A DNA stretch of 29,976 nucleotides from an uncultured bacterium (GTDB taxonomy: Bacteria; CSSED10-310; CAZUFC01). Position numbers and translations under genes: made by a program. Every line of letters begins with the position of its first letter. Position 1 is the stretch's first letter. Positions 1,542-28,701 of the stretch are shown here, piece after piece. Below the pieces are notes generated by a model, which was not told the origin of the DNA, made no database searches, and saw only the letters and a list, made by a program, of their open reading frames with translations. Location of the stretch: positions 1 to 29,976 of the forward strand of contig CAZUFC010000104.1 in assembly GCA_964619725.1 (NCBI GenBank). The letters run 5' to 3'.

Positions 1542-4500
1542 TCATTCCTCCGAAAAACCGAATTCCCATGAACCGAACTGACCGATCAGTTCGGTAAACT
1601 CGTTGTCGGTAAGTCCAGCGTAGAAATAGAGACCTTCCGCCTGTCCGCAACGATCGGGCCAGGGAAAGGTATCCAGGATGATTTTTTCGGTTATTCCCGC
1701 GGGAATGTCTTCCGTGTAGCAATCAAAGCCCTCCGAGGAATTTATCCAGGAAGGGGCGAACCATATTTCGCCGTAGACTTCCAGGAGAACGATGAGGGGT
1801 ATGCTCTGCATATATTCATCACAGTTACAGATCACGGCGCTGAGTGAACAGTTCATACCTGGAGTGAAGTGATGGGCGGGCATTTCAAGAGAGACTGTCG
1901 TTATGTCGCAGGGCAATTCCGTAGGCGTTACGGTCGGCGCTGGTGTCGGGATGATGGTCGGAGTTGAAGTCGGAACGGGAGCCGTGTTTTCATCGGCTCC
2001 GGCATCGCAGGAATCGAGTCTCTGATCGCCCTCGAAATCTAAAGGCGCTTCAGGCAAAAGCGCCGCTATATTCTGGCAGGCAGACCAGTCATGAATGTGC
2101 AGGTCTTCATCGCCATAAAAAGCCGGATCGCCGGACGTCACGGTCGTATCATCAGGACTGAAGCCGATGCAGGCGCCGTCGATGCCGTTCAGAAAATTAT
2201 GGTCCTCGGTCAATACGGCTTCTCCCGCAACTTCAACCGCAACATCATTCTTCGAGCCCTGTTTCACATTATAAAAACAGTTGTTCCTGGCCGTTATCGA
2301 CGTATTTTCCCCGGAGACGTATAAACACCACGAGTCAACGCCGCCGTCGTCGCCTTTAAGGTAAATGCTGTTGTGAAATAAATCGCTTCCGGATGCGCCC
2401 TCAGCAAAAATGACGTATGTGCCGGCTTTGACTCCTGCGCCTGCCGTGTTGTTGATATCATAAAACAGGTTGTTCACGATAAGGGAATCGCTGTCTGCAG
2501 GCAAACTCAGGACTTCAAGCCGGCTCTTCCCCGGAAAATAATGGATATTATGAAACCTGTTGTTTTTCACGACAGCGTTTCTGCCTTCGAGTTTCAACGC
2601 GGTCATAGTAATCATCGTATCGTTTCCGTCGCCGCCGAAATCGTTGTTCAGTATCTGCATGGAGTCGGACTGGTCGCCGGCGTGCACTCCCGTATAGGCA
2701 TCGCCGATAACGTTGCTTTCAAGAAGGGTCCCGCTGCCGTTGTCCTTAAGTGCATTGGACCATTGAATCTGCGAGGAATAACCGAGCAGCCGGCAGTTTT
2801 TGAAAGCGTTGTTTTCCGTAAGCCAGGAATGAAGCAATAATACGGTATATGACTGTTCTCCCGGTTCTTCAATGAGACTGAGACTCAATTTGCCGGCATC
2901 AACCCCGTTATGACCGTCAAAGACAATATAGTCGCATCCTTTCAATATCAAACCGGCGTGATAAGTGGGATGAATATTGAATTCCAGGAGCGCTTCAGAG
3001 CCTTCCGCCGGTTTTATCGTAACGGTATCGGTTTCGTTCGTCCCTTCGATGTGTTCGATAACCATCGATCCCTCCTGGTAAACTCCGTCGTTTAATTCCA
3101 GAACCACGGGACCGGTCGCTCCAGCTGTATGCAGATAATCCACGGCGGCTCCGAGGGATTCGAAATCGCCCGTTACGGGGTCTATCGTATAGGTTCCTGA
3201 CAGAGGCGGAGCGGGAGTCATTTCTATGATTAACGCTGCTACTCCGCCCTCGGTCACCGTGATGTCGGAGAAAAGGCCGGGAAAATATCCGTCCGCGTGA
3301 GCGGATACCGTATAAACGTCTGCCCTGATATCATCGAAGGCGACTTCGCCCGATCCGTCGCCTGTGGCAGCATAACTGTTCGGTTCGCCGTTGAGCTTAA
3401 CCGTCGGACAGGCTACGGGGTCTTGAGTTTCCGAATCGACGACCTGTATGAGTGCGCTTCCTCGCGGGATGCCGCCGTCTTCCTCAAAAAAATGGGTGGT
3501 ATTGACCGGCAGGTTCGTATAAGCATCGGTCAATCCGCTGGGCCAGGTTATGGTCAAGGTATCGATAATCAGAGCTGACCCGAGTCCGAAATGTACAAAA
3601 GGAGAATTCTGGGATGAACATGTGCCCATACCGGCTTCCACCTGGCGCGCCTGATGGAGTCCGGCCGTCTCTATGTCCACTCTGGCGCCGACAGCCGCTT
3701 TATTCGAATCTTTGCCCGTCAACAGGATTTTCACCCACGCGCCGTCAGAAGCATCATTACGGCATAATTTCAAACCGTCCGTGCTGCTGACGATCAGGTC
3801 CAGGTCACCGTCCTCGTCATAATCGGCCCAGGCAGCGCCCCAACTGTTCTTGGCGACTATGCCCCATTCATCCGTTATGTCCTGAAATACGGCGTTGCCC
3901 AGGTTTTCATACAGATGAGCCTTCGGAAAATTGTATACGCATGTGATGACTACGTCCAGGTCGCCGTCATGATCAAAGTCTGCGAAAGCCGGCGATGAGT
4001 GGGTCTCCTTGTAGGTTATCCCTGAACTTTCCGGCAGCCAGTCCATAAAATCGTAATCGGGCGCTCCGTTATTCAGGTACACTTTGGTGATGTCGGAGAA
4101 TTCCAGGTAATGTCCGCCATGCGCCAGGTTGGCGGTTACCAGGTCAAAATCCCCGTCGTTGTTTATATCGCCCCAGGCCGACCCGATGGTGTGACCGTAA
4201 TAAGGTCCGTTACCCTGGTAATACTCCTCATCCCCCTGTATGCCCAGTTCCTGAGACCTTTCGATGAAAGTCCCGTCTCCCTGGTTGTCCCACAGAAAAT
4301 TGGGATGCAGACGATAATTGGAAATGTAAACGTCCTGGTCGCCGTCTTCATCGTAATCGCACCAGGCGACGCTTCGTCCGTAACAGGCCGGCATGCCGCC
4401 CAGGCCGCACTCCTGCGTCATATCCTCAAACGTCCCGTCACCCCTGTTCTCATAAAAAACATCTGCCTGATAAGTCCCGCCGGCGCCTGACCATACCTCG

Positions 4501-4982
4501 GCCGCCGGCACATACAAATCTATCAGTCCGTCATTGTTGTAATCTCCCCAACCGGCTGCTGCCGTCACCCAGAAATCCGTGTAAACGTCCGTCCAGTCGA
4601 ATGTACCGTCTCCCTGATTGATGATCAGATAATCAGGCGCCCAGGTCGGACCGCTTCCCGCAGCAAAAATATCAGGAAATCCGTCGTTATTGAAATCTCC
4701 CCATACTCCAGAATAAGTCCCGCCAGGCAAATCCGATAATCCCGACGCCTCCGTCACGTCGATGAATCCGCCCGCTCCGTCGTTTTTGTAAAGTTTAACT
4801 CCCCCATTAACCAGCAAATCAACATGCCCGTCGTTGTCATAGTCGCCCCAGGCAACGCAACTGCCGCCGCCCAAAGGAACCTCGCCGCTCATGTCCGTGA
4901 ACAACTGCCCCGAAACGCCCGGATTGAATCCCCATAATAAAATGAAACATATTAATAATGATCCGATCATTTTCCCTTTCAT
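1542..4982 (-). CDS. Secreted CRTAC1/ASPIC-UnbV FG-GAP protein with carboxypeptidase-regulatory-like domain, beta-helix region, PT linker and conserved C-terminal domain
   Basis: Signal peptide; repeated AWGDY[DN]NDG Ca-binding motifs; ASPIC/UnbV segment (NKAAVGARV...HFGLG...ITWPSG); YTVSAHADGY; Asn-ladder beta-helix; GAGGAGG RBS. Confidence 0.8.
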   Translation of the reverse strand: MKGKMIGSLLICFILLWGFNPGVSGQLFTDMSGEVPLGGGSCVAWGDYDNDGHVDLLVNGGVKLYKNDGAGGFIDVTEASGLSDLPGGTYSGVWGDFNNDGFPDIFAAGSGPTWAPDYLIINQGDGTFDWTDVYTDFWVTAAAGWGDYNNDGLIDLYVPAAEVWSGAGGTYQADVFYENRGDGTFEDMTQECGLGGMPACYGRSVAWCDYDEDGDQDVYISNYRLHPNFLWDNQGDGTFIERSQELGIQGDEEYYQGNGPYYGHTIGSAWGDINNDGDFDLVTANLAHGGHYLEFSDITKVYLNNGAPDYDFMDWLPESSGITYKETHSSPAFADFDHDGDLDVVITCVYNFPKAHLYENLGNAVFQDITDEWGIVAKNSWGAAWADYDEDGDLDLIVSSTDGLKLCRNDASDGAWVKILLTGKDSNKAAVGARVDIETAGLHQARQVEAGMGTCSSQNSPFVHFGLGSALIIDTLTITWPSGLTDAYTNLPVNTTHFFEEDGGIPRGSALIQVVDSETQDPVACPTVKLNGEPNSYAATGDGSGEVAFDDIRADVYTVSAHADGYFPGLFSDITVTEGGVAALIIEMTPAPPLSGTYTIDPVTGDFESLGAAVDYLHTAGATGPVVLELNDGVYQEGSMVIEHIEGTNETDTVTIKPAEGSEALLEFNIHPTYHAGLILKGCDYIVFDGHNGVDAGKLSLSLIEEPGEQSYTVLLLHSWLTENNAFKNCRLLGYSSQIQWSNALKDNGSGTLLESNVIGDAYTGVHAGDQSDSMQILNNDFGGDGNDTMITMTALKLEGRNAVVKNNRFHNIHYFPGKSRLEVLSLPADSDSLIVNNLFYDINNTAGAGVKAGTYVIFAEGASGSDLFHNSIYLKGDDGGVDSWCLYVSGENTSITARNNCFYNVKQGSKNDVAVEVAGEAVLTEDHNFLNGIDGACIGFSPDDTTVTSGDPAFYGDEDLHIHDWSACQNIAALLPEAPLDFEGDQRLDSCDAGADENTAPVPTSTPTIIPTPAPTVTPTELPCDITTVSLEMPAHHFTPGMNCSLSAVICNCDEYMQSIPLIVLLEVYGEIWFAPSWINSSEGFDCYTEDIPAGITEKIILDTFPWPDRCGQAEGLYFYAGLTDNEFTELIGQFGSWEFGFSEE

Positions 4983-5770: not shown

Positions 5771-7942
5771 TCAATAGGTATAACTGTAATATGCAGCGCC
5801 GTTCGGTCCGATGGAGCCTGATTCGGCCCGCACGAGCGAGCCTTCGACGCGAACCTGCAGGAGGTATGAGGCGCTGTCGTAATCGCCGCATGAGGCGTAC
5901 CATTTCACGTAATACTCGTAGGTTCCCCTGGGGGCTGTGCCTGCTTCCCAGAAGATGTTTTCGGGTCCTCCGCCGCTGCCTTCGCCGCAAGCGCCGCGAT
6001 CGTCGAAGTCCAGGCGACCGCCGTCGGGAGATGTTTTAACGCCGTAGTAGATATGATATCCGTTGGGTGAGACGACGTGCAGGTCCAGGTCGGGACCTTC
6101 GCCGCTGTTGTAATAGTCCCAGTTGAGCTGGAAGGATATGTTGCCTGAACCCAGGGCGCAAACGGGGAGGACAGCCACGTCGCCCAGGACTTCGAAAGTT
6201 CCCGGAGTAGTCATTACGCCCCAGAAGAACAAGTCGCCGAAGGAGCTTGTTCCTCCCGGCCATCCGAAGCGCATGAAAGATTCGCTGCGACCGCCGCTGC
6301 CGGGGACGGTCATATTTTGAAAATCGAGGTCCTGTCCCCATGATGGCCAGAAGAAGAAATTTCCTTCGACTTCCAGTGCGATGTAAAGGTCCAGTGCGAT
6401 CGATGTCGTTGAAGGGTTCTGTATATAGTAGCGGCCGTCGAACAGGTCGTCCGGGGCGAAACAATCCAGAGGATCATGATTATAGTAATAAAGCGAGAGT
6501 TGCGGGTCCTCCGCAATGGCGCCGGGACCTCCGTAATACAGGTAATAACCCCATACGTTGTCGGAAGCGCTGCCGAGACGGGTGGTGTAAAGTTGGTCAT
6601 GCGTCTGAATTTCGTCCATGCCTCTTGCATCATGGTACGCATCTGACGTCCAGTAATGCATGTGTTTGACGAAGGCTGCCTGGGCATACTGCATTCCAGC
6701 GAATTTGCCGCTGCCCATGTCTGTGGTCGAAGGATGATCGACTCCGTTGTCGACGACTTCTCCACCCATGTTGACTACGATGGATTCGAGTTTCAAACCG
6801 TTATGGTCGAATAATGTAGTCGGGTAATAGCCTATCCAGATCGATCCGCCGTAACGGAGCCACCAGTGACCGCTGGGAGGATCGCGGTAAGCTTCCAGCG
6901 TAACGTGATACTGCGTTCCGTTTACCTGGCTGTAGTTATTCCAGTATCCGCCTATGACCACATCAGGATCAGTCTGAATGAATCCCTCGCAGTCCAGGTT
7001 ATAACAGCCGAAACCATCGCCATGCTGAGCGTAATTACACGTCGTGTAATAGATGAACAGGCGAGCTTTGTCATTGCCGTATTTACCTTCATATACCTGC
7101 CATCCTAATTCAACAGTCTGTGTGTCCGCGCCGGCTCCGTTCACTTCCCATAACTGGCATAAAGAAAATTCGTCGTCGTCTTCCACTTCAGGACTCCAAA
7201 GATTGAAATCTCCTCCCTGTCCGATATTGGATGTAATCAATCGCGCCGCTGCATATTTATGCACAACTGCAGGCGGAGCGGGCAATCCGCGACCGCCGGA
7301 AACAACGACTGAATCTTTTCGTTTTCCATGGGCTTCTGCAGCAGAAGAAACCGATCCAGATGCGATAAATTCCACCTTGCTCTCGCCGTCCCCGGGATAC
7401 TTGCTCCAGAAACTCTCCAGGTCCCTGAACCGAAAAAGGGCTTCCTCCGACGGTATCAAACGCGGAAATGACTTGTCGGGACACCGGCGAATATTGCCGT
7501 TGGGATCAAGCGAACCGTCCAGCATAGGTCCGACATGCTCTGAAGCAGGCATTGTCGATTCCTTGCCGGGCGGTTCAATCGGTTCCGGACGCGGAGCAGG
7601 CGGCATCAAAGGTTGAAACGTCAATTCATCCGGCGATATGCCTGCCGCCGCCAGCGATCCCTGAGTATATACATCGACGCAAACGCATTCTGAACCGTCG
7701 CTCATGAGAAATTCATGAACAATAACGCCGTCTTCGCGAAATTCAGCCAGGTATTCCTTCATACGTATGAATTCTTCCAGGGATTTCACCGCGAAATCCT
7801 CGTAACGTTCGCCCGCTTCTATGTATTCCTTCTCATACTGTACTAATTGATCGGACGAATACGTGGAAGCCGTTGAAGCGCCGATACCGTAAAAAACCTG
7901 TAATGTTAAAAAAATACAGATTAACCACCGAATTGTTTTCAT
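5771..7942 (-). CDS. Secreted neprosin-family (G3 glutamic) prolyl endopeptidase with pro-domain, shared ~115-aa domain and YfaP/DUF2135-like C-terminus
   Basis: Pro-domain-like DGSECVCVDVYTQ and CPDKSFP; catalytic-domain motifs FSLCQLW, TVELGWQV, RLFIYYT, GCYNLDCEGFIQ, WWL...IGYYP, GGEV, TDMGSG; C-terminal LNW...DLDLHVVSPNG...GGRLDFDD...GPENI. A GGGAGG RBS favours the start at 7942. Confidence 0.85.
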   Translation of the reverse strand: MKTIRWLICIFLTLQVFYGIGASTASTYSSDQLVQYEKEYIEAGERYEDFAVKSLEEFIRMKEYLAEFREDGVIVHEFLMSDGSECVCVDVYTQGSLAAAGISPDELTFQPLMPPAPRPEPIEPPGKESTMPASEHVGPMLDGSLDPNGNIRRCPDKSFPRLIPSEEALFRFRDLESFWSKYPGDGESKVEFIASGSVSSAAEAHGKRKDSVVVSGGRGLPAPPAVVHKYAAARLITSNIGQGGDFNLWSPEVEDDDEFSLCQLWEVNGAGADTQTVELGWQVYEGKYGNDKARLFIYYTTCNYAQHGDGFGCYNLDCEGFIQTDPDVVIGGYWNNYSQVNGTQYHVTLEAYRDPPSGHWWLRYGGSIWIGYYPTTLFDHNGLKLESIVVNMGGEVVDNGVDHPSTTDMGSGKFAGMQYAQAAFVKHMHYWTSDAYHDARGMDEIQTHDQLYTTRLGSASDNVWGYYLYYGGPGAIAEDPQLSLYYYNHDPLDCFAPDDLFDGRYYIQNPSTTSIALDLYIALEVEGNFFFWPSWGQDLDFQNMTVPGSGGRSESFMRFGWPGGTSSFGDLFFWGVMTTPGTFEVLGDVAVLPVCALGSGNISFQLNWDYYNSGEGPDLDLHVVSPNGYHIYYGVKTSPDGGRLDFDDRGACGEGSGGGPENIFWEAGTAPRGTYEYYVKWYASCGDYDSASYLLQVRVEGSLVRAESGSIGPNGAAYYSYTY

Positions 7943-8177
7943 GCTTGTTCCTCCCTGCGGAAGTTCCTCCATTTTTAAGATTACATGTTGGAAAGGTAAA
8001 AGGCAATTTTGCGTAGAAAATTTAAACTGTCATCAGATACTGGAAACCCGCATTTATCTGCTTACAAAACGCTGGCCATTGACGGATAAGCATTTATTTT
8101 AGACTTCGCATTCCTCCCAGATTATTGTTGAAATGAAGCAGTAATGTAAGGCAACCATCAAAAAAGGAGGCGTCAGA

Positions 8178-8591
8178 ATGGATTTTGATCGGGAATCGAG
8201 AACATTCAGCGGCCCTGGGGGAATGTTTAAAATCCTGGAAGGCGACGAGGCAAGCTACAAACTGGCTATGCTCATTACCGGCGAATGTGAGAGCATCGGA
8301 CCCTCGAAAGCCGCTGAATTGTTCGGATTCAGCAGGCAGCGATATTTTCAGTTACGTTCCGATTACATGGAAAAAGGCGTTGAGGGACTCTTAAATAAGA
8401 AACGAGGTCCCAAGAGTTATGACAGAAGAACTGACGAAGCGATCGTTCAAATCGTTCGGCAGAGTTTCCGGAATCCTGATGCTTCCACAGAAGCCATCGC
8501 TAAAAAGTTGCAGCAAAGCGGTTACAGGATAAGTAAAATGAGCGTAGCCCGCGTTATAGCCGACTATGGTCTGCACAAAAAACAGCTATGA
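8178..8591 (+). CDS. HTH protein of transposase-associated type (no catalytic partner seen)
   Basis: KAAELFGFSRQRYFQLR...GVEGLLNKKRGPK and a second HTH (AIAKKLQQSGYRISKMSVARVI) resemble the N-terminal DNA-binding part of IS transposases. AAGGAGG RBS. Confidence 0.6.
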   Translation: MDFDRESRTFSGPGGMFKILEGDEASYKLAMLITGECESIGPSKAAELFGFSRQRYFQLRSDYMEKGVEGLLNKKRGPKSYDRRTDEAIVQIVRQSFRNPDASTEAIAKKLQQSGYRISKMSVARVIADYGLHKKQL

Positions 8592-8629
8592 TCAAAAAAT
8601 CTTCCATTCCTCAATCATTCCACTCTTCC

Positions 8630-9055
8630 TCCTCCATCACGCCCAAAACCTGGAGATACTTCGGAAGCAGTTGGGAAACCCATTTCAAGCTGGGACGTTA
8701 CACGTTCGAGCCGGAAGGCGAAAACCACTGCCAGGCATACTTATCAATAAAGTTCGACGGGCCTTCTTACGGCGGCGGCAGTCCCCAGGACCTGTTAACG
8801 GTCGACAGAATTTTCGTCGTTCGTGAATTCACTCCCACACCTGCCGCAACGACGCCCCCTACGCCGGCGCCGAAAATTCCTCCGGGTCCTGTCACAACCC
8901 CCACCGCTGCCTGCCACGCCGTTGAAATCCTCATCCCCGCAACTTTAACGCATCCCCGTGAAGTGTTCTGGGTTAAGGCCCGAATCTATAATCCATATTC
9001 TGCAAGAAGCAATGTACCGCTCTGCGTGTTGCTCAATATGCCTGTTCGATACTGA
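8630..9055 (+). pseudogene. Fragment of a secreted PT-linker protein with truncated conserved C-terminal domain
   Basis: No signal peptide. A PT linker is followed by CHAVEILIP...FWVKARIYNP...NVPLCVLL, which matches the first third of the domain ending the 1542-4982 protein, then a premature stop. Confidence 0.5.
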
Positions 9056-9160
9056 ACTTCTGAATTACGAGATATCTCCGGTTGCCGCCGTACCGACTCA
9101 TTCGATCAAGTTTGACGGGATTCTCTGAGAGTAGCACTGATCAAAAAGAAATATAGAAGC

Positions 9161-9197
9161 TTGACGTCGTGATACGGAAACATTACCATGTATCACG
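9161..9197 (+). promoter_or_regulatory. Sigma70 promoter with overlapping operator palindrome for the vapBC pair
   Basis: TTGACG(9161)-N17-TACCAT(9184); inverted repeat CGTGATAC(9168-9175) / GTATCACG(9190-9197); GGAGG RBS follows. Confidence 0.75.
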
Positions 9198-9206
9198 GAG
9201 GACGAT

Positions 9207-9461
9207 ATGATATCGCTCAGATTAACTCGAAAACTTGAAAGACGAATATCGGAAGCTGCGGAAGCAGAGGGAATTTCAAGGTCTGAATTGGTCAGGAAAA
9301 GCATTAGGGAATATTTATCGAAGCGTGACAAGCAAATGGCGTGGGAGCTTGGAAAGGACCTTTTCGGAAGGTACGACCTTGAAAATACGGACCTTTCACG
9401 CGACAGGAAACGCATTATCCGGCAAAGAATAAAGAAAAAAACGAACAGGCATTCCAGATGA
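9207..9461 (+). CDS. vapB: Ribbon-helix-helix (CopG-type) antitoxin
   Basis: MISLRL...AEAEGISRSELVRKSIREYL RHH signature; ATGA overlap with the PIN gene. Confidence 0.8.
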   Translation: MISLRLTRKLERRISEAAEAEGISRSELVRKSIREYLSKRDKQMAWELGKDLFGRYDLENTDLSRDRKRIIRQRIKKKTNRHSR

Positions 9462-9874
9462 AAAAGGCATTGATTGATTCGGGACCTATGACTGCCTTGT
9501 TTAATTCACGTGACTCTTATCATGAGACGTCAAAAGCATTCATGAAGAGATGCCGATATAATTTAGTAACGACAATGGCATCGATAACCGAGGTGATGTA
9601 TTTGCTGGAAACGAATTTGTTTGCCGCTGCTGATTTTCTTGAATGGCTTGCAAGAGGCGCGGTGGAAATTGCGGATATAACAAGCGCTGATTTCACTGAT
9701 ATCAAGGAATATATGATGAAATACGGCGACCTGCCGATGGATTTTGCAGATGCAACGCTCATGGTTGTTTCAGATAGAGAGCGAATAAATAAAATAGCGA
9801 CGTTCGATTCGGACTTCGATATTTACAGAACTGCTGCGAAGGAGAAGCTGAATAACATCATTTCGATTCAATAA
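9458..9874 (+). CDS. vapC: PIN-domain toxin
   Basis: ALIDSG...ITEV...MDFADATL...IATFDSDF supply the conserved PIN acidic residues. Confidence 0.88.
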   Translation: MKKALIDSGPMTALFNSRDSYHETSKAFMKRCRYNLVTTMASITEVMYLLETNLFAAADFLEWLARGAVEIADITSADFTDIKEYMMKYGDLPMDFADATLMVVSDRERINKIATFDSDFDIYRTAAKEKLNNIISIQ

Positions 9875-10102: not shown

Positions 10103-13100
10103 TTAATTTTTCTTTCTTATGACTCCTGACAGGAATAAACCCATTAAAATAAATACGACTAAAATTCCTCGTGCGGTCAGACTCGGAACAGGAACAGGTT
10201 CAGGAGTCGTTGTTGCTGTAGGTGAAATGTAGGGCGTTTCTGTGGGAGGTTCAGGCGTTGATGTGAGTGTAGGCGGGTCAGTCGGCGATTGCGTAGGGGT
10301 TTCGGTCGGTGAGAGCGTTGATGTGGATGTGGGCGTTTCTGTAGGAGTGTCGGTCGGCGAAAGCGTGGATGTGGATGTGGGCGTTTCTGTAGGAGTGTCG
10401 GTCGGTGAGAGCGTCGATGTGGATGTGGGCGTTTCTGTAGGAGTGTCGGTCGGTGAGAGCGTCGATGTGGATGTGGGCGTTTCTGTCGGCGATTGAGTTG
10501 CCGTAGCGGTCGGCGTTTCTGTCGGAGGTTCAGGCGTATCAGTAGGTATGGGCGTATCTGTCGGTTCTGGAGAGGCGCTGGGTTCAGGAGTGGGCGAAGC
10601 TTCCTGTACCGAAAACGATCTGACCGCAGATTCAATCATGTTAACCTCATCTTCAGCCGTGACGTACCATTCATAGGAGCTCCCGTTATTAAGTCCCGTC
10701 CAGTCGAAAGAGAGGTTCGTTCCTGAGGGAACCTGCGTATATACGGCCAGCGTCTGGAAGGGTTCCTGGGGCGACATTTCCAGATCGAGAACGAATTCGT
10801 GGGCGTCCGATGTCAAATAGTCATCAATTGAAGGCGAATAAGTCTGCACGTAAATCTGATTATTGTCCGGAGAAAAGGTCATCAGACGCATATAACCGTT
10901 TCCGCCGTTAGGTCTGCACTGGTAATCGCTCAGAATCTGGTGGACTTCTTCTCCGTAGTCGTTCAAGTCTGTTCTTCGTGCCGCTTCACAGGCATGACCG
11001 CATAAAACCAGTTTTATGTTGTTGTTCATTCTGACCAGTTGATTCCAGAGATTATTCAAATAACTGCCGCTTCCGCTAAGATAAATATGCGTGGTCAATA
11101 TGCAGATTCGATCGGGATAAGCATCGAGCACGCTCTGGGCCCAGGTAATCAATCCTGAGGGCATTGCATATTCGAGATGGAGGAACAGCAAATCCAGTCC
11201 TGAAACGGTAAGGAGCTGATAATTGCTTTTGTAGTTTGAGGGAGCGTAATGACCGCCGAACCAGGGTTCTGACTCATATCTTGTGTAGGGGAAATATTGA
11301 TCGTAGAAATTAGCCGTTCCGTCGGAGTACTGATCGTGATTACCGGGGGTCAGTCCGTAGGGAATCTGGTCGTCAAGTATACTCATGGCGTTGTCAGCGA
11401 CTATCCATTCGCTTTCGATGGAATCCCTGTTTTCAACAATATCGCCCACATGCGTCACGAAAATAGTATTGTAGACATCTTTATTGTCCACGGCCCATTG
11501 AGTCTGATCGCTGAAATACTGCGAACCGGCCTGACAATAGTATTGAGTATCAGGTAGAACGACAAGCATGAAATCTTCCTGTGAACCAAGGCCGGTAACT
11601 TCCCTTCCGTAAAAGGTTACAGTCATCTCAGATTCTTCCGTATCGCTGACCGTGGCTTCCAGGGTAACGGAAGTCGGGAGATCGACGGCTCCATCGTCCG
11701 GGGACAGGAGTATGATTTCCGGAGGTTCATTGACCGGCGTTGAGGTTGGCCCTGGCGTTGGAGAGAGGTAGACGTATCCGCCTGTCCATACCGGTCCGTT
11801 GGTCAAAATTCCCGTATTGCCGTTTCCGGATGAGTCTGCGGCTGTCGTGCCTTCGCATTCGTTGAAACCCCAGCGTCCCACAAGTCCTGCAGCGGTTTCC
11901 ACTTCATCCGCAATAGTCGTCTGGATTTCCGCTTCGGTCCGGGCATAATTCCATACCCTTACTTCGTCCAGGATTCCGTCAAACGCGCCGCCGCCCGAAC
12001 CGTTGTCGTCAAGCGAGCGGGATATCGCAAAATAACAGGTGCTGTCCGAACGGGGCATGCCTCCGCCTTCATTCTGTTCCCCGTCCATAACGCCGTTCAG
12101 ATAAAGGCGGTTATAGGTCCCGTCGAATGTGCAGGCGGCATGGTTCCATATTCCATCCGTTACCGTCGTGTTTCCGTACAGCAGGTGATCGTAACCCGCA
12201 TAATTGGGACCGCCGGACGTTTCCTCCCAGCCTATGAACAGTTTCCCGTTTTCTGATATGCCGAAGTAGTAGTTGATGTCATAGGCGCTTCCGTCCGCAA
12301 AATTGGTCCCCTTGGTCACCATGGGCGAGACGTCGTACCATTTTGTCGTTCCGGCGCCTTCCCTGTAGAACCAGCATTCTATGGTGAAATTTGATAATCC
12401 CAGTTCAGGCAACAGCGGTCCGCCGAAGGAGAGGTAATCGTTGGAACCGTCGAAATCGATGCCGCAAGCTCCCGGAACTGTCGTGGGGGTCAAAGTGGGA
12501 ACCACAGTAGGCGTCGCAGTCGCAGGCGTCCCGGTAATGACAGGTGTCGGCGTATAATAGACGTATCCGCCTGTCCATACCGGCCCATTGGTAAGTGTGC
12601 CCGAATTATCGTTACCGGAAGAGTCGGCGGCCGTCGCACCCTCGCATTCGTTGAAACCCCAGCGACCGACCAGGCCGGCAGCCGTTTCCACTTCGTCGGG
12701 CATAGTCGTCTGGATTTCTGTTTCTGTCCGGGCGTAATTCCATATCCGTATTTCATCCAGAACGCCGTCAAAAGCGCCGCCGCCCGAACCGTTGTTATCC
12801 AGCGAGCGGGATATCGCAAAATGACATGTGCTGTCTGAACGGGGCATGCCGCCCCCTTCATTCTGCTCACCATCAAGAACGCCGTTCAAATAAAGGCGGT
12901 TATAAGTCCCGTCGAAGCTGCAGGCCGCATGATTCCACACCCCGTCCGTCACTGTCGTGCTTCCGTAAAGGAGATGATCATATCCGGGAGAATTGGGGCC
13001 GCCAGACGTCTCCTCCCAGCCGATGAACAGTTTCCCGTCTTCGGATATGCCGAAATAATAGTTAATGTCATAAACGCCGCCGTCCATAAAATTCGTCCCC

Positions 13101-14857
13101 TTCGTCACCATGGGAGATACGTCGAACCACTTCGCTGTCCCGGCGCCTTCCCTATAGAACCAGCATTCTATAGTAAAATTCGATAATCCAAGCTCCGGCA
13201 ACAGCGCTCCGCCGAAATACAGGTAATCGTTGGAACCGTCGAAGTCGATCCCGCAGGCGTCAGTAAGAGGGCTCGGCGTTGATGTCGGTATCGGCGTTGA
13301 TGTCGGTATTTCAGTCGGCGTAGGAGTACTGTAAACGTATCCTCCCGTCCAGACCGCTCCGTTTGTCAGCGTTCCCGTATTGTCGTTTCCGGACGAGTCC
13401 GCAGCCGTCGTACCTTCGCATTCGTTGAAACCCCAGCGCCCAACCAGGCCGGTCGCGGTTTCCACTTCATTCGGCATGTCGTTCTGGATTTCCGTTTCAC
13501 TACGGGCGTAATTCCATACCCGTATTTCATCCAGAACGCCGTCAAAAGCGCCGCCGCCCGAACCGTCGTCCTCCAGAGAGCGGGATATCGCAAAATGACA
13601 CGTGCTGTCCGAACGGGGCATGCCGCCTCCTTCATTCTGCTCACCGTCAAGAACGCCGTTCAGATACAGGCGGTTATAGGTCCCGTCGAACGTGCAGGCC
13701 GCATGATTCCATACTCCGTCCGTCACGGTCGTGTTTCCGTAAAGAAGATGATCGTAACCGGCAAAATTTGGGCCGCCGGACGTCTCCTCCCAGCCGATGA
13801 ACAGTTTCCCGTCTGCGGATATGCCGAAATAATAGTTTATGTCGTAAGCGCCGCCGTCCGCAAAATTGGTCCCTTTCGTCACCATGGGCGACACGTCGTA
13901 CCACTTCTCTGTTCCGGCGCCTTCCCTGTAAAACCAGCATTCTATAGTAAAATTCGATAATCCCAGCTCCGGCAACAGCGGTCCGCCGAAGGAGAGGTAA
14001 TCGTTGGAGCCGTCGAAATCGATCCCGCACTCTCCCGGAGTCGCAGTCGGCGTGACTGTCGGAACGACGGTAGGCGTCACTGTCACGGGAAAAGAGTACC
14101 CGGTCGTCCATGATACTCCACCGGTGAGAGCGCCCGTATTGCCGTTGCCTGACGTATCCGCCGTCGTGCTGCCCGTGCCCTCATTAAAGCCCCAGCGACC
14201 TGCCAATCCGCTCGCCGTTTCAATCTCATGGTTCATGCTCCCCTGAATTTCCGTCTCGCTTCGCGCATAATTCCATACTCGTACCTCTTCCAATACTCCG
14301 TTGAATGCTCCGGTACCCGATCCGTTGTTGTCCAGAGACCTGGATACGGCGAAATGACACGCGCTGTCATAACGCGGCAACCCTCCGCCTGTCGATTGTT
14401 CGCCGTCCAGGTTCCCGTTCAGGTACAATCTGTTGACCGAACCGTCAAAAGTGCAGGCCGCATGATACCACGTGCCGTTCGATACAACCGTATCTCCCGT
14501 CAGAAGATGATCGTATCCGGCAAAATTCGGGCCGCCAGACATTTCTTCCCAGCCGATGAATAAACGCGAATCTTCGCTTATTCCAAAATAATAATTGATG
14601 TCATAATTCCCGCCATCGGAAAAATTGGTTCCCTTCGCAACAAGAGGTTCGGCGTTGTGCCACCTTCCTGTTCCTGTCCCCTCACGATATATCCAGCATT
14701 CAATCGTAAAGTTCTGCAATCCCAGTTCAGGCAACAAATCGCCGCCGAAGGAAACATATCCGTCGCTTCCGTTAAAATCCAGCGCATGCTGCGCCAGGCA
14801 AGGCAAAGCCGTGAATAAAATCAGGGCTGATACAATATAAAACTTTCTACCGGGCAT
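10103..14857 (-). CDS. Secreted 4x LamG-like jellyroll protein with calcineurin-like metallophosphoesterase, PT linker and IPTL-CTERM-like tail
   Basis: Four FTIECW...W[YN]HAAC[TS]FDG...LYLNG...[DE]E[VI]R[VI]WNYAR repeats; MPP motifs LPDTQY, HVGDIV, GNHD, TTH, LCGH; ends VPSLTARGILVVFILMGLFLSGVIRKKN. Confidence 0.85.
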   Translation of the reverse strand: MPGRKFYIVSALILFTALPCLAQHALDFNGSDGYVSFGGDLLPELGLQNFTIECWIYREGTGTGRWHNAEPLVAKGTNFSDGGNYDINYYFGISEDSRLFIGWEEMSGGPNFAGYDHLLTGDTVVSNGTWYHAACTFDGSVNRLYLNGNLDGEQSTGGGLPRYDSACHFAVSRSLDNNGSGTGAFNGVLEEVRVWNYARSETEIQGSMNHEIETASGLAGRWGFNEGTGSTTADTSGNGNTGALTGGVSWTTGYSFPVTVTPTVVPTVTPTATPGECGIDFDGSNDYLSFGGPLLPELGLSNFTIECWFYREGAGTEKWYDVSPMVTKGTNFADGGAYDINYYFGISADGKLFIGWEETSGGPNFAGYDHLLYGNTTVTDGVWNHAACTFDGTYNRLYLNGVLDGEQNEGGGMPRSDSTCHFAISRSLEDDGSGGGAFDGVLDEIRVWNYARSETEIQNDMPNEVETATGLVGRWGFNECEGTTAADSSGNDNTGTLTNGAVWTGGYVYSTPTPTEIPTSTPIPTSTPSPLTDACGIDFDGSNDYLYFGGALLPELGLSNFTIECWFYREGAGTAKWFDVSPMVTKGTNFMDGGVYDINYYFGISEDGKLFIGWEETSGGPNSPGYDHLLYGSTTVTDGVWNHAACSFDGTYNRLYLNGVLDGEQNEGGGMPRSDSTCHFAISRSLDNNGSGGGAFDGVLDEIRIWNYARTETEIQTTMPDEVETAAGLVGRWGFNECEGATAADSSGNDNSGTLTNGPVWTGGYVYYTPTPVITGTPATATPTVVPTLTPTTVPGACGIDFDGSNDYLSFGGPLLPELGLSNFTIECWFYREGAGTTKWYDVSPMVTKGTNFADGSAYDINYYFGISENGKLFIGWEETSGGPNYAGYDHLLYGNTTVTDGIWNHAACTFDGTYNRLYLNGVMDGEQNEGGGMPRSDSTCYFAISRSLDDNGSGGGAFDGILDEVRVWNYARTEAEIQTTIADEVETAAGLVGRWGFNECEGTTAADSSGNGNTGILTNGPVWTGGYVYLSPTPGPTSTPVNEPPEIILLSPDDGAVDLPTSVTLEATVSDTEESEMTVTFYGREVTGLGSQEDFMLVVLPDTQYYCQAGSQYFSDQTQWAVDNKDVYNTIFVTHVGDIVENRDSIESEWIVADNAMSILDDQIPYGLTPGNHDQYSDGTANFYDQYFPYTRYESEPWFGGHYAPSNYKSNYQLLTVSGLDLLFLHLEYAMPSGLITWAQSVLDAYPDRICILTTHIYLSGSGSYLNNLWNQLVRMNNNIKLVLCGHACEAARRTDLNDYGEEVHQILSDYQCRPNGGNGYMRLMTFSPDNNQIYVQTYSPSIDDYLTSDAHEFVLDLEMSPQEPFQTLAVYTQVPSGTNLSFDWTGLNNGSSYEWYVTAEDEVNMIESAVRSFSVQEASPTPEPSASPEPTDTPIPTDTPEPPTETPTATATQSPTETPTSTSTLSPTDTPTETPTSTSTLSPTDTPTETPTSTSTLSPTDTPTETPTSTSTLSPTETPTQSPTDPPTLTSTPEPPTETPYISPTATTTPEPVPVPSLTARGILVVFILMGLFLSGVIRKKN
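10302..10490 (-). repeat. Intragenic 48-bp tandem repeat (~4 copies, TETPTSTSTLSPTDTP)
   Basis: tcggtcgg(t/c)ga(g/a)agcg recurs with a 48-bp period. Confidence 0.9.
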
Positions 14858-22600: not shown

Positions 22601-23593
22601 GACGGAAAAAAAGACCTTTTCCTGGGGACGATCAATTCTCCAGGTTTTGGCTATTTGCAATACGTTTACCTGAACGAAGGGACCGATGCCGCACCGGAAT
22701 TCTTTACCGGTGAAGCGCTGCAATACGGCGCTGCAGGATATGAATCCCCCTTGCCCGGCGACTGGATTTCCGTGCCGCATATCTGGGATTATGAAGAAGA
22801 CGCGGTTCCCGATATAGTCATGACTACGGCCTGGGACGATACGAGACTCACCAACTTCAGCAACCAGGGAACGCCCGGATTCCCCGATCTGATCGACGGA
22901 GGATTTCTTACGGCCGGTTACGGATACATCGAAGGCGTCAATTCAATTTCTCCAGAAGTGACAGACTGGGATGAAGACGGCAAAAAAGACATACTGATCG
23001 GAAATCCCTTTAACCTGGTCTATTATCCTAATAATCAGGATAATCAGACATCGCCGCCCGATCCTTACAATTTCAACGTGCACGATACAGCTCACAATCT
23101 TATAGAACTCACCTGGTCCAATCCCGCAGACCTGGACTTTGCCGGAGTCCTCATCGTACGCTCTGAATCGCCCATAACCTGGCGGCCGTCAGACAGACAG
23201 CATTATCACGTATTGGCCGGCACGGAAGTCGCTCCCGGCGTATCAGTCGTTTACAAAGGCGCTGAAGATTATTCGAGCATACCCTGGACCGACGCCGACG
23301 TCCAAGCGGGCGTAACTTACCATTATCGTGCTTTCTCCTACGACCTTATACTGCCGTCCTACTCCGTAGAAGGAGCCCAGGCTTCCACGCAAACGCTGCC
23401 GGGAACCCCGACGCCCATACCCACAGTGACACTGACCCCGACTTTGACGCCCGAACAAACCCCGACCCTTACTCCGGTTCCCACGTTTCCGCCTGTTCCC
23501 GCATTGGGAGGTTTTGGCATTGCGTTCATTGCGACCCTGATGGGATTGCTTTTAACCGGATCAACATGGTTTCGATCGAGAGGAACTTTTTGA
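16679..23593 (+). CDS. Giant secreted FG-GAP/VCBS-repeat protein: three modules of 10 Ca-binding repeats plus an FN3-like domain, with IPTL-CTERM-like tail
   Basis: Signal peptide; 30 D[WYVM][DNE]xD[GAS]xxD motifs; LxW[TS]NP...Y[HY]YRxF FN3-like domains; PT linkers; VPALGGFGIAFIATLMGLLL...RSR tail. AAGGAG RBS favours the ATG at 16679. Confidence 0.85.
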   Translation: MRSLFFLSFAVLIILSFSWDGQSLHAEGAAGASKVLEGSAFRESKMIDVSKKGLSIEMENEHREDVLSPAGPPELEEAVEIKREQFVMSGTGSHFRLCVTDWDQDGVKDLLVGVNDGRIRIVSNTGSETEPFLENGAWLKSGYNDIDVGWNASPRHFDWNSDGRRDLLVGDSDGRVRFFANTGSESAPQFGSSITLNAGYGVLDVGMSANPFPVDWNNDGKHDLVVGGHDGQLHLFRNIGSSASPQLAAGEALTAGYQSIDVETDSQPRVTDWDGDGKKDLLVSGRGSYGAKLSLFLNEGTDANPLFQSETILYSSESYIPYAWRQGWDFCDVNGDGVEDLVKVNADRAISYMPNKGTNFNRIYDETLYMPGSQATSIYYNNMMSNRIVDWDEDGLKDLMLCVKTHDNAVYMIMNTNTEEDPELTGHIMPATVTGKRVGAGFDYDTPEIVDWNNDGKKDILMGRHDGSCGDIYLYLNVGENYDPLFADKQKLTDGYVDVGPREVIDVETADWNSDGRKDLLVGSNLRQSGGCLQYVFLNEGTDAEPSFSSGDVLEYGPVGYESLLTGTNLTVPHVWDYEEDGDPDIIITAAWTSNRLMKYNNHGVPGSPNLMQEGQLEAGYGYVGHVHAVFPDVCDWDEDGRKDLTVCERDGVFFYRNAQENMTSPNEVSGLVVDSVTETTASLKWTNPSDDDFAGVIIARAFEDITWKPSDRQHYHVNEGVETAPGVEIVYRGDEDHSTVPWTDEGLLPGHFYHYRIFTCDKVLPAYSIDGVQIVALTNGDTVTPTFSPTPTDTPTPTATATPTPVGEPEFGNKMEITREVHIIPEDGWRYRPWATDWDKDGKMDLLTGCTHGYVRLCINSGSAQNPQFQDAGRLNAGYSNIDVGDHSSPVHYDWNSDGKRDLLIGNAAGQIEYLENQGSDTVPVFAGSNTLQAGYGVLDVDHYAEPFPVDWNNDGKDDLLVGGHGGHVHLFLNVGDQSNPQLDSGTLLQVGYQNIDIGRVSRPWVTDWNGDGMKDLLVEGSDHFSLFINVNTDADPQFNEETVIGHQKQTGIIPYHDTWCFTDMNNDAAEDLLVTSKSGAVMYYPNQGTTLNRVYEKAMYIPGEEPGAMFYNRKTQRVVDWDEDGLKDILLVPKNMVHRHYVVLNSGSSNEPSFTSQLILSTESGRWVGFDSTYMFPEVVDWDNDGRKDILSAHRDRYNSGDVYLFPNIGENYDPEFGDPEKLTAGYIDLGPEEVIGMEVTDWNADGKKDLILASDLGPGPQRNQYIYLNEGTDANPAFTTGSLLQYMHSGYESPVPGIQFCVAHVWDYEEDGDPDILITDSSHQDRVHLFNNIGTPGSPQLIDAGYLEASYGYLMGNYHIAPAVTDWDEDGKKDIVFGENHAMGWCPNLQAQETSPPEAAHFTAVEATSTGIGLAWSNPVVCDLGGIIIVRSESDIVWRPSDRMHYHADTGHDVAPGVTVVYKGSENHSVIPWTDENVEPETLYYYRAFSYDAVLPAYSVEGVQISVTASDNTPTPSPTSTPTSTPTEGPAGEPEFGEGIEIKREAYRVLDHTRATSPNATDWDKDGKIDLICGHHGRIQLAMNIGTVNQPQFQDGSDIQSVYGYVEVGEGASPQHFDWNADGRRDFIIGDFYGNVFYYQNFGDDDAPEFRNGDALYAGYSILDVGLEAEPFAVDWDNDGRNDLVVGARDGKVRLFRNVGTAANPQLDSGALIYVGYEPIQMDDDSNPWVVDWNGDGRKDLVVSSSYPYSFSFFENINTDADPAFSEETVLYHEGSAVRLASNIDWALADMNGDSAQDILSATGDTAVLYYPNKGTNTNRIYYEAEYIPGDEPTEMFRRNKVPRVVDWDEDGLKDLLLCVGSNDDHYVVFNNGTQTEPKFTGHLRLATTTGRQIGFTAEYHCSEIIDWNNDGKKDLLVARHDYSNNGDVYLFLNTNENYEPRFGNPEKLSSGYSDLGPNRVYGIEVSDWNDDGKKDLFLGTINSPGFGYLQYVYLNEGTDAAPEFFTGEALQYGAAGYESPLPGDWISVPHIWDYEEDAVPDIVMTTAWDDTRLTNFSNQGTPGFPDLIDGGFLTAGYGYIEGVNSISPEVTDWDEDGKKDILIGNPFNLVYYPNNQDNQTSPPDPYNFNVHDTAHNLIELTWSNPADLDFAGVLIVRSESPITWRPSDRQHYHVLAGTEVAPGVSVVYKGAEDYSSIPWTDADVQAGVTYHYRAFSYDLILPSYSVEGAQASTQTLPGTPTPIPTVTLTPTLTPEQTPTLTPVPTFPPVPALGGFGIAFIATLMGLLLTGSTWFRSRGTF

Positions 23594-27084: not shown

Positions 27085-28701
27085 GTGTTTAAAAAGGTCA
27101 TAACTATCGTAAGTTCGGGATTAATTTGCGCATTTTTTTACCTGACGGCGACTTTTGCAGGGATATTCAACGAATATGAGCACGGCGACAGGACGCCGGC
27201 TTTTACGTATGAAGAAGACAGGATCATATCAGGCCATGAGGGCCAGGCTGAAACTTTGTCGTTTCGCTTAAGCCTTTACGGAGAGGAGGAAGTCCGTTTG
27301 CCTCTCCTGGTACAGGTACACGAATGGGGCGGCAGTTTTCAGCGCATGGAGGACATCGCGCGTTATACGCCGGAGGAATATGATTTCGTTATGCTTTATT
27401 TTCAGTATAAGCCTTCGACGGGCAACGAGGACGACTGGTGGTTCGGGACTCACTGGTCCGGCGAATGCCGCCTGTGGGCGCATGAAGCAGTGATGAACAT
27501 CGTCCGGGAAGCTCAAAATACGCCGCTGGTTTCGGATCATGTTCCTGGAACGAGCATTGATCCCAGCAGAATATATCTTTTCGGTCACAGCATCGGAGGA
27601 ACCGGAGCCTGGCAGTTGGGCATGAGAAACCCGGACATTTTCGCTGCTGTACACGCTCATTCGGGATTCGCTCGCTTCACGCCGCCAGTGGGACCATTTC
27701 AGCAGCAATTCGAGGATGACATCGTAGGAGGTCCTGCAGACGGCATAATAATAACGGGCGACGACGGCAGCGAATATCCCGCCCGTGATTATTCAAATCT
27801 GGCCTGGTGGCTGGAAAACTATCGCTCGCCCTCCTTCCCCGCTCCCTTCATGATCATAACGGCAGGCCTGGATGACGAAATCGTACCGGCAGCTTCAGGA
27901 GCCGACCTGATGGCGCCTGTTCTGGATGCTCAAAAACGCTGTTTCTTTTATTACCGTCATCAATGGGGACATTCGGAAGCCTGTTTCGTGCAGTTGAACC
28001 GCATGTGGAACTTCAGGCTCAGCCGGAGTTTTCCGGCGTTCACGAATCGCAGCGGTTACGGCGTCGCTTTGAATGAAATCGGCAATATTAATGATCTCTA
28101 TCAGTTTTCGTGGAACCCCGACACCATCGTCGATCTTCCGAACAGGTACGAAGTTCAGTTGACGGGAACCGGCACGGCCGACGTCACCCTCAGAAACCTT
28201 CAGAATTTTCAGGTCGAACCTTACGCTTCCTATGAATACCGTCTGGACGATCCTTCAGCGCCGCCAATGCCTATAACTGCCGACCAGTTCGGATTGCTGA
28301 CCGTCCCCTCCGTTTCAGGCCCTCGCCGCCTTATCATCACCCCGGCAGGCTATGACTCAATCATCATACATTTAACGCTGAATCAATCGGTCTACACAGC
28401 CGGGGATTCCTTCGTCCTCTCCTGCTCAAGTTACAATCCAGGACCCGAAAAAGAAGCGCATCGCTATATCATCCTGGATTACCACGGCGCTTACTGGTTC
28501 TATCCCGCATGGTCACAATCGCCAGACCATCAAACCGTCACGCTGCCTCAGAACGAAAACCTCTCCGACCAAATCCTCAACTTCACCTGGCCCTCAAATG
28601 CCGGAGCCAATACCGGCATAATCTTCTGGGGCGGATACGTCGATCCGTTATCCGGAAACTTGACGAGCAATATCGAACAGGTTTATTTCGACTATCAATG
28701 A
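27085..28701 (+). CDS. Secreted alpha/beta hydrolase (esterase/peptidase) with conserved C-terminal domain
   Basis: Signal peptide; PLLVQVHEWGG; IDPSRIYLFGHSIGG nucleophile elbow; GLDDEIVP (Asp); WGHS (His). Confidence 0.8.
   Translation: MFKKVITIVSSGLICAFFYLTATFAGIFNEYEHGDRTPAFTYEEDRIISGHEGQAETLSFRLSLYGEEEVRLPLLVQVHEWGGSFQRMEDIARYTPEEYDFVMLYFQYKPSTGNEDDWWFGTHWSGECRLWAHEAVMNIVREAQNTPLVSDHVPGTSIDPSRIYLFGHSIGGTGAWQLGMRNPDIFAAVHAHSGFARFTPPVGPFQQQFEDDIVGGPADGIIITGDDGSEYPARDYSNLAWWLENYRSPSFPAPFMIITAGLDDEIVPAASGADLMAPVLDAQKRCFFYYRHQWGHSEACFVQLNRMWNFRLSRSFPAFTNRSGYGVALNEIGNINDLYQFSWNPDTIVDLPNRYEVQLTGTGTADVTLRNLQNFQVEPYASYEYRLDDPSAPPMPITADQFGLLTVPSVSGPRRLIITPAGYDSIIIHLTLNQSVYTAGDSFVLSCSSYNPGPEKEAHRYIILDYHGAYWFYPAWSQSPDHQTVTLPQNENLSDQILNFTWPSNAGANTGIIFWGGYVDPLSGNLTSNIEQVYFDYQ

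Follow-up and report, generated by a model that had tools for sequence, protein, structure and literature searches.

Domain copies in the window

The window, by which we mean the whole 29,976-nucleotide stretch analysed here, contains four copies of one protein domain, three full and one truncated (Table 1), and they lie where a sequence-only reading of the DNA had placed them. Pairwise BLASTP comparison of the three full copies gives E-values of 7e-10, 2e-5 and 0.005, and compared with all reading frames of the genome the same copies reach profile E-values of 1e-25 to 1e-34; their similarity is far above chance. The proteins that carry the full copies have unrelated passengers, as had been read from the sequence: Pfam matches bear out FG-GAP/ASPIC, Neprosin and alpha/beta hydrolase assignments. 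The earlier claim that all three carriers have signal peptides also stands, in that their N-termini look signal-peptide-like by inspection and by a hydrophobicity heuristic. In the Neprosin protein the domain is internal, and the tail of about 125 residues that follows it occurs only once in the whole genome.

The fourth copy belongs to a gene remnant, and a profile search for its missing remainder found none in any frame of 8800-9600. Around this copy lie an HTH transposase-like frame (8178-8591) and a PIN-domain frame (9458-9874). The window contains no recognisable secretion component, in agreement with the earlier statement that cognate machinery is absent from it.

Table 1. Features of the window that relate to the domain and to the alternative C-terminal endings.
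Feature	Position	Strand	Basis or remark
Carrier 1, FG-GAP/ASPIC protein, 1146 aa: signal-peptide-like N-terminus, FG-GAP repeats, ASPIC/UnbV, CarboxypepD_reg-like, stalk, domain	1542..4982	-	Translation and Pfam
C-terminal domain copy of carrier 1, V-x-L-x-M-P-start subtype	1551..1895	-	Profile positions 1-112 of 113, E 3.9e-39
Pro/Thr-rich stalk APVPTSTPTIIPTPAPTVTPTELP, directly upstream of the domain of carrier 1	1911..1982	-	From translation
Carrier 2, alpha/beta hydrolase, 538 aa, signal-peptide-like N-terminus	27085..28701	+	Weak PHB-depolymerase/esterase matches
C-terminal domain copy of carrier 2, L-x-L-N-start subtype	28366..28698	+	Profile positions 1-112, E 3.9e-37
Carrier 3, Neprosin (PF03080) protein, 733 aa	5771..7972	-	Pfam and translation
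Internal domain copy of carrier 3, then unique tail	~6140..6493	-	Profile match
Gene remnant: Pro/Thr stalk and profile positions 1-40 of 111, then stop	8921..9040 (frame 8588-9055)	+	Profile match
Alternative ending: Pro/Thr stalk, PPVPAL motif, hydrophobic helix, basic tail	23489..23590	+	On 2309-aa FG-GAP protein, 16664-23593
Alternative ending: Pro/Thr stalk, PVPSL motif, hydrophobic helix, RKKN	10106..10198	-	On 1584-aa LamG/metallophosphatase protein, 10103-14857

Sequence, predicted fold and family searches

The domain covers 111 profile positions and comes in two start subtypes, 'MP' (87 copies) and 'LN' (126 copies), which separate weakly (identity 34% and 29% within, 26% between). 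It is rich in aromatic residues (17.6% versus 10.1% in the background) and very acidic, with a mean net charge of -12.9 and a pI below 5 in 99% of 213 copies. An AlphaFold2 model of the residues encoded by 1545-1910 (pLDDT 97.3) has eight strands and no helix, and the predicted fold is a confident yet generic Ig-like beta-sandwich. The nearest small-domain structure is CARDB (PDB 3idu; Foldseek TM 0.58/0.63, VIA Z 8.3, rmsd 3.0 over 97 residues), a Z of about 8.3 being typical of unrelated sandwiches according to the comparison tool's own note; other small-domain matches are a Wzt carbohydrate-binding domain and a porphyran-binding CBM. The likeness to CARDB and other E-set Ig-like domains is thus one of structural neighbourhood within the range of unrelated sandwiches, whereas sequence identity is 10-15% and 33 members of the domain have no CARDB (PF07705) match in Pfam at E up to 1.

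The same Pfam search returned no other family for the 33 members, SLH and dockerin included, and none of the 33 matched any NCBIfam model. The only sequence-profile match in the PDB was to LDL-receptor YWTD repeats; no single stretch of it passes, and we judged it spurious. The clusters matched in ESM Atlas were all unnamed, and recognition there fell short of its usual level; the source records of ten relatives hold no name. The earlier view that the domain is not a named family is upheld by these searches. In the literature on CSSED10-310, T9SS, C-terminal sorting/exosortase and IPTL-CTERM we found no description of the domain, and the CSSED10-310 genome announcement (PMC8248873) does not mention it.

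Copy number and terminal position

A profile derived from the three full copies was run against the window's own 9.2-Mb genome and detected 227 copies in 226 reading frames, that is, one domain per protein. The distance to the stop codon is at most 5 residues in 210 of the 227 copies, 6-20 residues in 7, 21-60 in 5 and more in 5; the five non-terminal copies comprise two directly after the signal peptide and three internal ones. Among crude genes of at least 120 aa, 217 of 5695 carry the domain, or roughly one gene in 25 to 40. The sequence-only reading had predicted tens to hundreds of mostly C-terminal copies, which is what this genome contains, and the predicted C-terminal bias extends to a library of 1.84 billion proteins, where 147 of the best 150 matches reach to within 5 residues of the C-terminus. 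By comparison, this genome also has an ordinary Ig-like domain whose 51 copies are spread over 32 proteins; they often stand in tandem, and only 23 are terminal.

These numbers bear on whether the domain might simply be a ligand-binding or spacer module of the ordinary kind (CBM- or CARDB-like) that takes an environmental substrate or metal, has no sorting role and owes its abundance to lineage-specific domain shuffling. A plain ligand-binding role is conceivable because of the generic fold and the aromatic content, and the strongly acidic character would suit it as well; one copy per protein in a near-invariant terminal position is nonetheless unlike the tandem Ig-like family of this genome. 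The passengers, moreover, share no common substrate, and the domain never accompanies helix-type sorting tails but takes their place in paralogues (see below). We consider this explanation improbable.

Anatomy of the carriers

Signal-peptide-like N-termini were found on 152 of 208 carriers versus 1002 of 3431 control frames (odds ratio 6.6), as judged by a home-made hydrophobicity heuristic with a background rate of 29%; an enrichment on signal-peptide proteins had been predicted. Across carriers, the 30 residues upstream of the domain consist of 19% Pro and 19% Thr, compared with about 5% each in the background, and in 106 of 210 copies a Gly occupies position -1, just before the first strand.

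Passengers were scanned with Pfam in a non-random set of 47 carriers, taken from carrier-dense stretches together with 3 odd cases. They include five Peptidase_C25 proteins with propeptide, S8, two M14, C11 and six beta-helix/PMP proteins, as well as FG-GAP, PKD, LTD, GH114 and GSDH; 16 of the 47 carriers matched no Pfam family. The passengers are unrelated to one another and typical of exoproteins.

Dockerins of cellulosomes are terminal tags on unrelated enzymes behind a Pro/Thr linker and occasionally stand at the N-terminus or internally. The domain resembles them in each of these respects, has hundreds of carriers per genome, and might by analogy plug enzymes onto the repeated receptors of one or a few large surface scaffolds. 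Segment-wise self-comparison revealed many repeat-rich giant proteins that lack the domain (12092, 8482 and 6404 aa, and others), several of which end in helix-type anchors, as might be expected of an anchored scaffold. A dockerin is, however, a duplicated calcium-binding loop-helix structure, whereas eight strands without any helix are seen in the model of the domain, whose members match no Pfam dockerin; in addition, many carriers are not polymer-degrading enzymes. Of the readings considered here, we find this one the hardest to credit.

Relation to helix-type sorting tails

Two further proteins of the window end differently, in a Pro/Thr stalk followed by a short motif, a hydrophobic helix and a basic tail (Table 1). 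Genome-wide we counted 379 frames with such a helix-plus-basic tail, at least 76 of which, these two included, have it after a Pro/Thr stalk. None of the 379 carries the domain, so that the earlier remark that carriers lack a TM tail applies to all 226.

The C25-peptidase homologues allow the two endings to be compared among paralogues. This genome encodes 26 of them: the domain forms the end of 15, and 6 have an [IV]P[AV]x-helix-basic tail there. In a relative that lacks the domain, 11 complete C25 homologues were examined; 7 of them have a C-terminus composed of a VPTLS-like motif, a helix and a basic tail, and one of these 7 reaches the cut-off of the IPTL_CTERM model. Paralogous peptidases thus end in the domain or in an [IV]P[AST]x-helix-basic sorting tail, and none combines the two. 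The endings are not cleanly split between genomes, because the helix-tail profile gives weak matches in the window's own, domain-bearing genome as well.

As far as can be judged from these sequences, the domain and the helix-type tails occupy an equivalent, mutually exclusive slot. The domain therefore resembles the IPTL-CTERM (TIGR04174)/PEP-CTERM/exosortase class in its place after a Pro/Thr stalk, on paralogous secreted proteins and in the same genomes. Those tails combine a short motif with a membrane helix and a basic stretch, whereas the domain appears to be folded, soluble, acidic and free of helix. We rejected its assignment to this class on the grounds that none of the 379 helix-tailed frames carries it and that the model is all-beta.

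Comparison with the type IX secretion system

The T9SS CTD is reported to act as a signal for export across the outer membrane and to be removed by PorU (PMC4804311, PMC12618676). The domain shares several traits with the type A CTD of Bacteroidota (TIGR04183/Por_Secre_tail): it is a predicted beta-sandwich at the extreme C-terminus of proteins with a predicted Sec signal, it has about 100 or more carriers per genome, and the kinds of cargo match, C25 gingipain-family peptidases included. The two differ in length (72 positions in the CTD model versus 111) and in the few N-terminal or internal copies of the domain. A further trait of this CTD class is cleavage by a PorU-type sortase with attachment to A-LPS.

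TIGR04183 had no match in four genomes of the phylum versus 103 in a Cytophagaceae control genome, and hhalign of 33 domain copies against 30 CTDs of that control gave a probability of 0.4% with one aligned column. Matches to core components were equally missing from the phylum genomes searched, whose completeness is 86-96%: SprA and GldM had no match (2611 and 484 bits, respectively, in the control), PorV had none in three genomes, and GldK gave only FGE-sulfatase matches below cut-off (at most 107 bits, cut-off 350), in domain-bearing and domain-free genomes alike. The domain was accordingly rejected as a T9SS CTD. A weak match to the domain in the Cytophagaceae genome lies inside an S8 peptidase with a normal T9SS CTD and was dismissed as chance. 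Slam/T11SS (PF04575) matched none of 14 phylum genomes, but the control was likewise without a match, so that this result carries no weight.

The domain could still be a cleaved export signal of an undiscovered T9SS-like translocon, recognised in the periplasm, threaded through the outer membrane and removed, possibly with the passenger becoming attached to a lipid or glycan. Its strictly terminal position as a single copy, cargo that mirrors that of T9SS (C25 with propeptides, S8, M14, PKD), the similar scale (226 carriers here, 103 CTDs in the control), the expected outer membrane and the Gly before the first strand are all in line with this proposal. On the other hand, SprA, GldM and PorV find no match, the domain has no profile similarity to T9SS CTDs, and no candidate translocon emerged. 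Two copies stand at the mature N-terminus and three are internal; a strict C-terminal export signal is doubtful given these five non-terminal copies. The Pro/Thr stalk, which the helix-type anchors have as well, fits a retained foot better than it does a discarded signal. We regard a cleaved signal as unlikely, while giving it more weight than the ordinary-module and dockerin-like readings.

Distribution and search for partner genes

In the phylum, most likely candidate division CSSED10-310, 11 of 14 species genomes hold between 56 and at least 150 copies each and three hold none, in keeping with the predicted abundance in one lineage. A distant branch of the domain occurs in three genomes outside the phylum (300-genome sample), and MAGs labelled as Verrucomicrobiota and Gracilibacteria have one copy each, a pattern that points to stray contigs or transfer. 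BamA exceeds its cut-off in all 14 phylum genomes, so an outer membrane is expected; secretins and a small exosortase-family protein are likewise present in 14 of 14. All three gene families consequently fail to discriminate between domain-positive and domain-negative genomes.

Our searches identified no partner, receptor, translocon or processing enzyme, and clustering of 455 neighbours of carriers produced no telling recurrent family. One machinery candidate came from a protein in which the domain directly follows the signal peptide and an FGE-sulfatase domain forms the end; the part between them was discarded as a candidate, since no more than 3 of the other 10 domain-bearing genomes have it.

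Proposed role and implications

Taking together the observed anatomy, copy number, terminal position, passenger range, lineage restriction, lack of T9SS and exclusion of helix-type tails, we propose that the domain is probably a lineage-specific C-terminal tag for surface sorting or retention. The targeting or docking role suggested by the sequence-only reading gains support from the copy number, terminality and lineage pattern that it predicted and from the lack of a known family; the function and its machinery are deduced from these patterns.

In the mechanism that we envisage, the carrier would be exported by Sec via its N-terminal signal peptide, and the catalytic or adhesive passenger would be held on an extended Pro/Thr-rich stalk. 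At the chain end, the acidic, aromatic-rich, eight-strand Ig-like sandwich would be recognised by a component of the envelope, and this recognition would bring the carrier to the cell surface, keep it there, or both. We prefer the interpretation that the domain is retained in the mature protein, where it would form the foot of the stalk, and we infer that it has a dedicated partner. Export itself could use a type II pathway, for which no tag is required, since all 14 genomes contain secretins.

More tentatively, the domain may be the cargo mark of an undiscovered, non-T9SS outer-membrane sorting system, with a translocon and/or an attachment enzyme, in CSSED10-310 and a few further uncultured lineages; we rate this possibility well below the sorting or retention tag as such. 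If true, it would mean that secretion by a Sec signal plus a C-terminal folded domain was invented independently, for 2-4% of the proteome.

C-terminal sorting tags have repeatedly led to envelope machinery, as with sortase, exosortase, archaeosortase, rhombosortase and T9SS. Dedicated machinery for the tag, if it exists, would be a new protein-sorting route, traceable by comparing the 11 positive with the 3 negative genomes. A model of the domain would give a name to the C-termini of about 2500 protein clusters that are now blank. Most carriers are secreted proteases or adhesin-like proteins, in a phylum with outer-membrane biogenesis genes and no detectable T9SS, and the domain would predict the surface proteome of this uncultured phylum.

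Domain copies in the window

The window encodes a domain of ~111 residues four times, three times in full and once as a stump, on proteins (carriers) whose other, passenger parts are unrelated according to Pfam (FG-GAP_3/UnbV_ASPIC, Neprosin and Peptidase_S9/esterase). Carrier-versus-carrier BLASTP alignments are confined to the domain stretch (E-values of 7e-10, 2e-5 and 0.005), which has no match in Pfam or NCBIfam. The sequence-only reading had placed and described these copies, and its account holds as judged by translations, pairwise BLASTP and the Pfam passengers.

Window features bearing the domain or a helix-type tail
Feature	Position	Strand	Observation
FG-GAP/ASPIC protein	1542-4982	minus	C-terminal end is the domain
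Neprosin protein	5771-7972	minus	internal copy of the domain
Truncated domain copy (frame)	8588-9055		Pro/Thr stretch, then profile positions 1-40 only, then stop
LamG protein, 1584 aa	tail 10106-10198	minus	stalk, PVP[AS]L, hydrophobic helix, basic tail
FG-GAP protein, 2309 aa	tail 23489-23590	plus	stalk, PVP[AS]L, hydrophobic helix, basic tail
Alpha/beta hydrolase	27085-28701	plus	C-terminal end is the domain

The stump is flanked by an HTH transposase-like frame (8178-8591), which overlaps the start of the stump frame, and by a PIN-domain frame (9458-9874), and appears to be what remains of a gene next to mobile or toxin-antitoxin genes. In the neprosin protein, the last ~125 residues after the internal copy (5771-6139, minus strand) have no Pfam family and are single-copy in the genome. 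A nucleotidyltransferase (Polbeta/NTP_transf_2) frame adjoining a HepT-like RNase frame (25889-26734, plus strand) looks like an MNT-HepT toxin-antitoxin pair.

Copy number and carrier anatomy

A profile seeded from the three window copies was iterated to convergence over every stop-to-stop frame with 50 codons or more in the source genome, G000 (9.17 Mb, 344 contigs, 90.9% complete, 6.5% contamination), and identified 227 domains in 226 frames. The domain end lies 0-5 residues from the stop in 210 copies, 6-20 in seven, 21-60 in five and more than 60 in five, the last being the window neprosin protein, two copies directly after a signal peptide and two internal ones. Carriers occur on 124 of the 344 contigs and make up 217 of 5695 frames in a crude gene set (≥120 aa); gaps between successive carriers are below 500 bp in 28 of 102 cases. 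The copy number and terminal position support the earlier proposal of a tag placed on many secreted proteins.

In a home-made signal-peptide test, with frames of at least 300 aa as controls, 152 of 208 complete carriers were positive against 1002 of 3431 control frames in the stricter version (odds ratio 6.6), and 184 of 208 against 1566 of 3431 in the looser one. Pro and Thr each make up 19% of the 30 residues upstream of the domain, compared with ~5% each in the background, and we refer to this stretch as the stalk. The domain starts with [LTI]-G followed by V-x-L-x-[LM]-[PN], ends with F-G-[WYF] plus 0-4 residues, and is very acidic (mean net charge -12.9; pI <5 in 99% of 213 copies, proteome median 6.2), with an aromatic content of 17.6% versus 10.1%. 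The passenger parts of G000 carriers are likewise very acidic (median pI 4.2 versus 6.2 for random genes).

Pfam scanning of 47 carriers, a non-random set drawn from the stretches richest in carriers with three odd architectures added, found a family in 31 and none in 16. The passengers include peptidases (five Peptidase_C25 with C25 propeptide, S8, two M14 and C11), six beta-helix/PMP/DUF1565, FG-GAP, PKD, LTD, GH114, GSDH, PGA_cap, FGE-sulfatase and others. Unusual fusions of an FGE-sulfatase (SUMF1-like) with the domain recur on G000 contigs C153 (3826-6570) and C179 (522-2945) and in protein P0050, with the architectures signal peptide-domain-X-FGE, FGE-domain-FGE and beta-helix-domain-stalk-FGE. 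In P0005 (440 aa), a protein from a global library, a signal peptide precedes the C-terminal half of the domain, its N-terminal half and then a full copy, an order that may reflect permutation, a chimera or faulty assembly.

Distribution

The nearest copies beyond G000 are in public MAGs labelled 'candidate division CSSED10-310', a rare phylum, Gram-negative by prediction and sister of Acidobacteriota (PMC8248873), whose sole dedicated paper does not mention the domain. Judged by these nearest copies, G000 most likely belongs to this phylum. Match counts at E up to 1e-10 run from 56 to at least 150 per genome in 11 of 14 phylum species genomes, and the other three, each from a separate family and 87-96% complete, have none. 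A sample of 300 genomes centred on a negative relative, i.e. one without the domain, contained 13 with matches: ten phylum members and three outsiders. The outside matches (25, 20 and 4 at E up to 1e-3) are weak, with best E about 1e-9 to 1e-10, and form a divergent branch that lacks the F-x-W-P motif; at 12 outside loci examined, C25-type passengers included, the domain ends within eight residues of the stop in nine. MAGs labelled Verrucomicrobiota and Gracilibacteria have one copy each. The global library (1.84 billion representative proteins) gave 2510 matches at E up to 1e-3, and the domain is the very C-terminal end in 147 of the best 150.

Fold and family identity

Searches with 33 aligned members gave no credible family in Pfam at E up to 1 (four isolated chance matches, best E 0.09) and zero matches to any NCBIfam model, and a sequence profile search of the PDB returned LDL-receptor YWTD repeats only, with no stretch passing alone. 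The AlphaFold2 model built from this alignment (pLDDT 97.3, pTM 0.88) has eight strands and no helix. Foldseek against the PDB retrieved generic Ig-like sandwiches only (TM 0.4-0.6), among them RhoGDI, CARDB (3idu), complement MG domains, the Wzt carbohydrate-binding domain and a porphyran CBM; an exhaustive structural scan gave a top Z of 9.8 (Ig-like domain of a GH66 enzyme) and 8.3 for CARDB, a range common for unrelated folds. Since credible sequence matches were absent from these three databases and the structural neighbours are generic, we conclude that the domain is an unnamed family with a predicted E-set-like fold.

Slot exchange with helix-type tails

The most telling result is that the domain exchanges its slot with helix-type tails. 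Among 26 C25-peptidase homologues in G000, 15 end in the domain, six in [IV]P[AV]x with a hydrophobic helix and basic tail, three in another Ig-like domain and two otherwise. In a relative without the domain, 11 complete C25 homologues were inspected, and seven end in a VPTLS-like motif, helix and basic tail; in an eighth, motif and helix are followed by a longer tail, and one homologue reaches the IPTL_CTERM cut-off. A helix and basic tail end 379 G000 frames (≥200 aa), none of which carries the domain, and in at least 76 of them a P[AST][LMV]-type motif follows a Pro/Thr stalk. Both ending types occur in the window, where the tails of the LamG and 2309-aa FG-GAP proteins are, by their sequence, putative IPTL-CTERM-like signals. 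Because the domain replaces established signals of the anchor type, likewise after a stalk, and occurs as a single C-terminal copy per protein, it behaves as a sorting or anchoring element.

In contrast, an ordinary Ig-like family of G000 is spread over 32 proteins with 51 copies, many of them in tandem and 23 terminal, and does not occur in any protein with the domain; that the latter is a plain binding module we regard as improbable. The contrast family is itself unnamed and ends in W-P-x-L-N-V-E (e.g. a 1210-aa frame on C72, and C145, C1 and C93). Six giant repeat proteins of 12092, 8482, 6399, 6404, 6140 and 5416 codons (contigs C34, C39, C2, C8, C119 and C9) lack the domain, and two (C8 and C9) have helix-type tails.

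Role of the domain

In a Cytophagaceae MAG used as positive control for T9SS searches, SprA (2611 bits), GldM (484 bits) and 103 type A CTDs were detected. All three were absent from the three positive and one negative phylum genomes searched, PorV had no match in three positive genomes, and GldK gave sub-cutoff FGE-sulfatase matches only, in positive and negative genomes alike. These results, and a profile-profile probability of 0.4% between the domain and 30 real T9SS CTDs, led us to reject the domain as a T9SS tag. BamA passes its cut-off in all 14 phylum genomes, and an outer membrane is therefore expected. Secretins and a small exosortase-family protein are also present in all 14, and neither tracks the domain.

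We propose that the domain is probably a surface-sorting or retention tag. The main rival, a cleaved, T9SS-like export signal, is favoured by the types of cargo and by the terminal position, yet is without any translocon candidate and appears unlikely. For the tag, we prefer a mechanism in which the domain would stay on as the foot of the stalk and bind an envelope component, because helix-type anchors have such a stalk too and a few copies lie at the mature N-terminus. A module docking onto a scaffold is the least probable reading. No recurrent family was found among carrier neighbours. A partner candidate suggested by the recurrent FGE-sulfatase fusions was rejected, being present in only three of the ten other positive genomes; the X region of the signal peptide-domain-X-FGE fusion is not conserved across positive genomes.

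The finding adds a new unnamed family, which in its putative tag function would fill a known role by novel means, in a phylum that is itself almost unknown.
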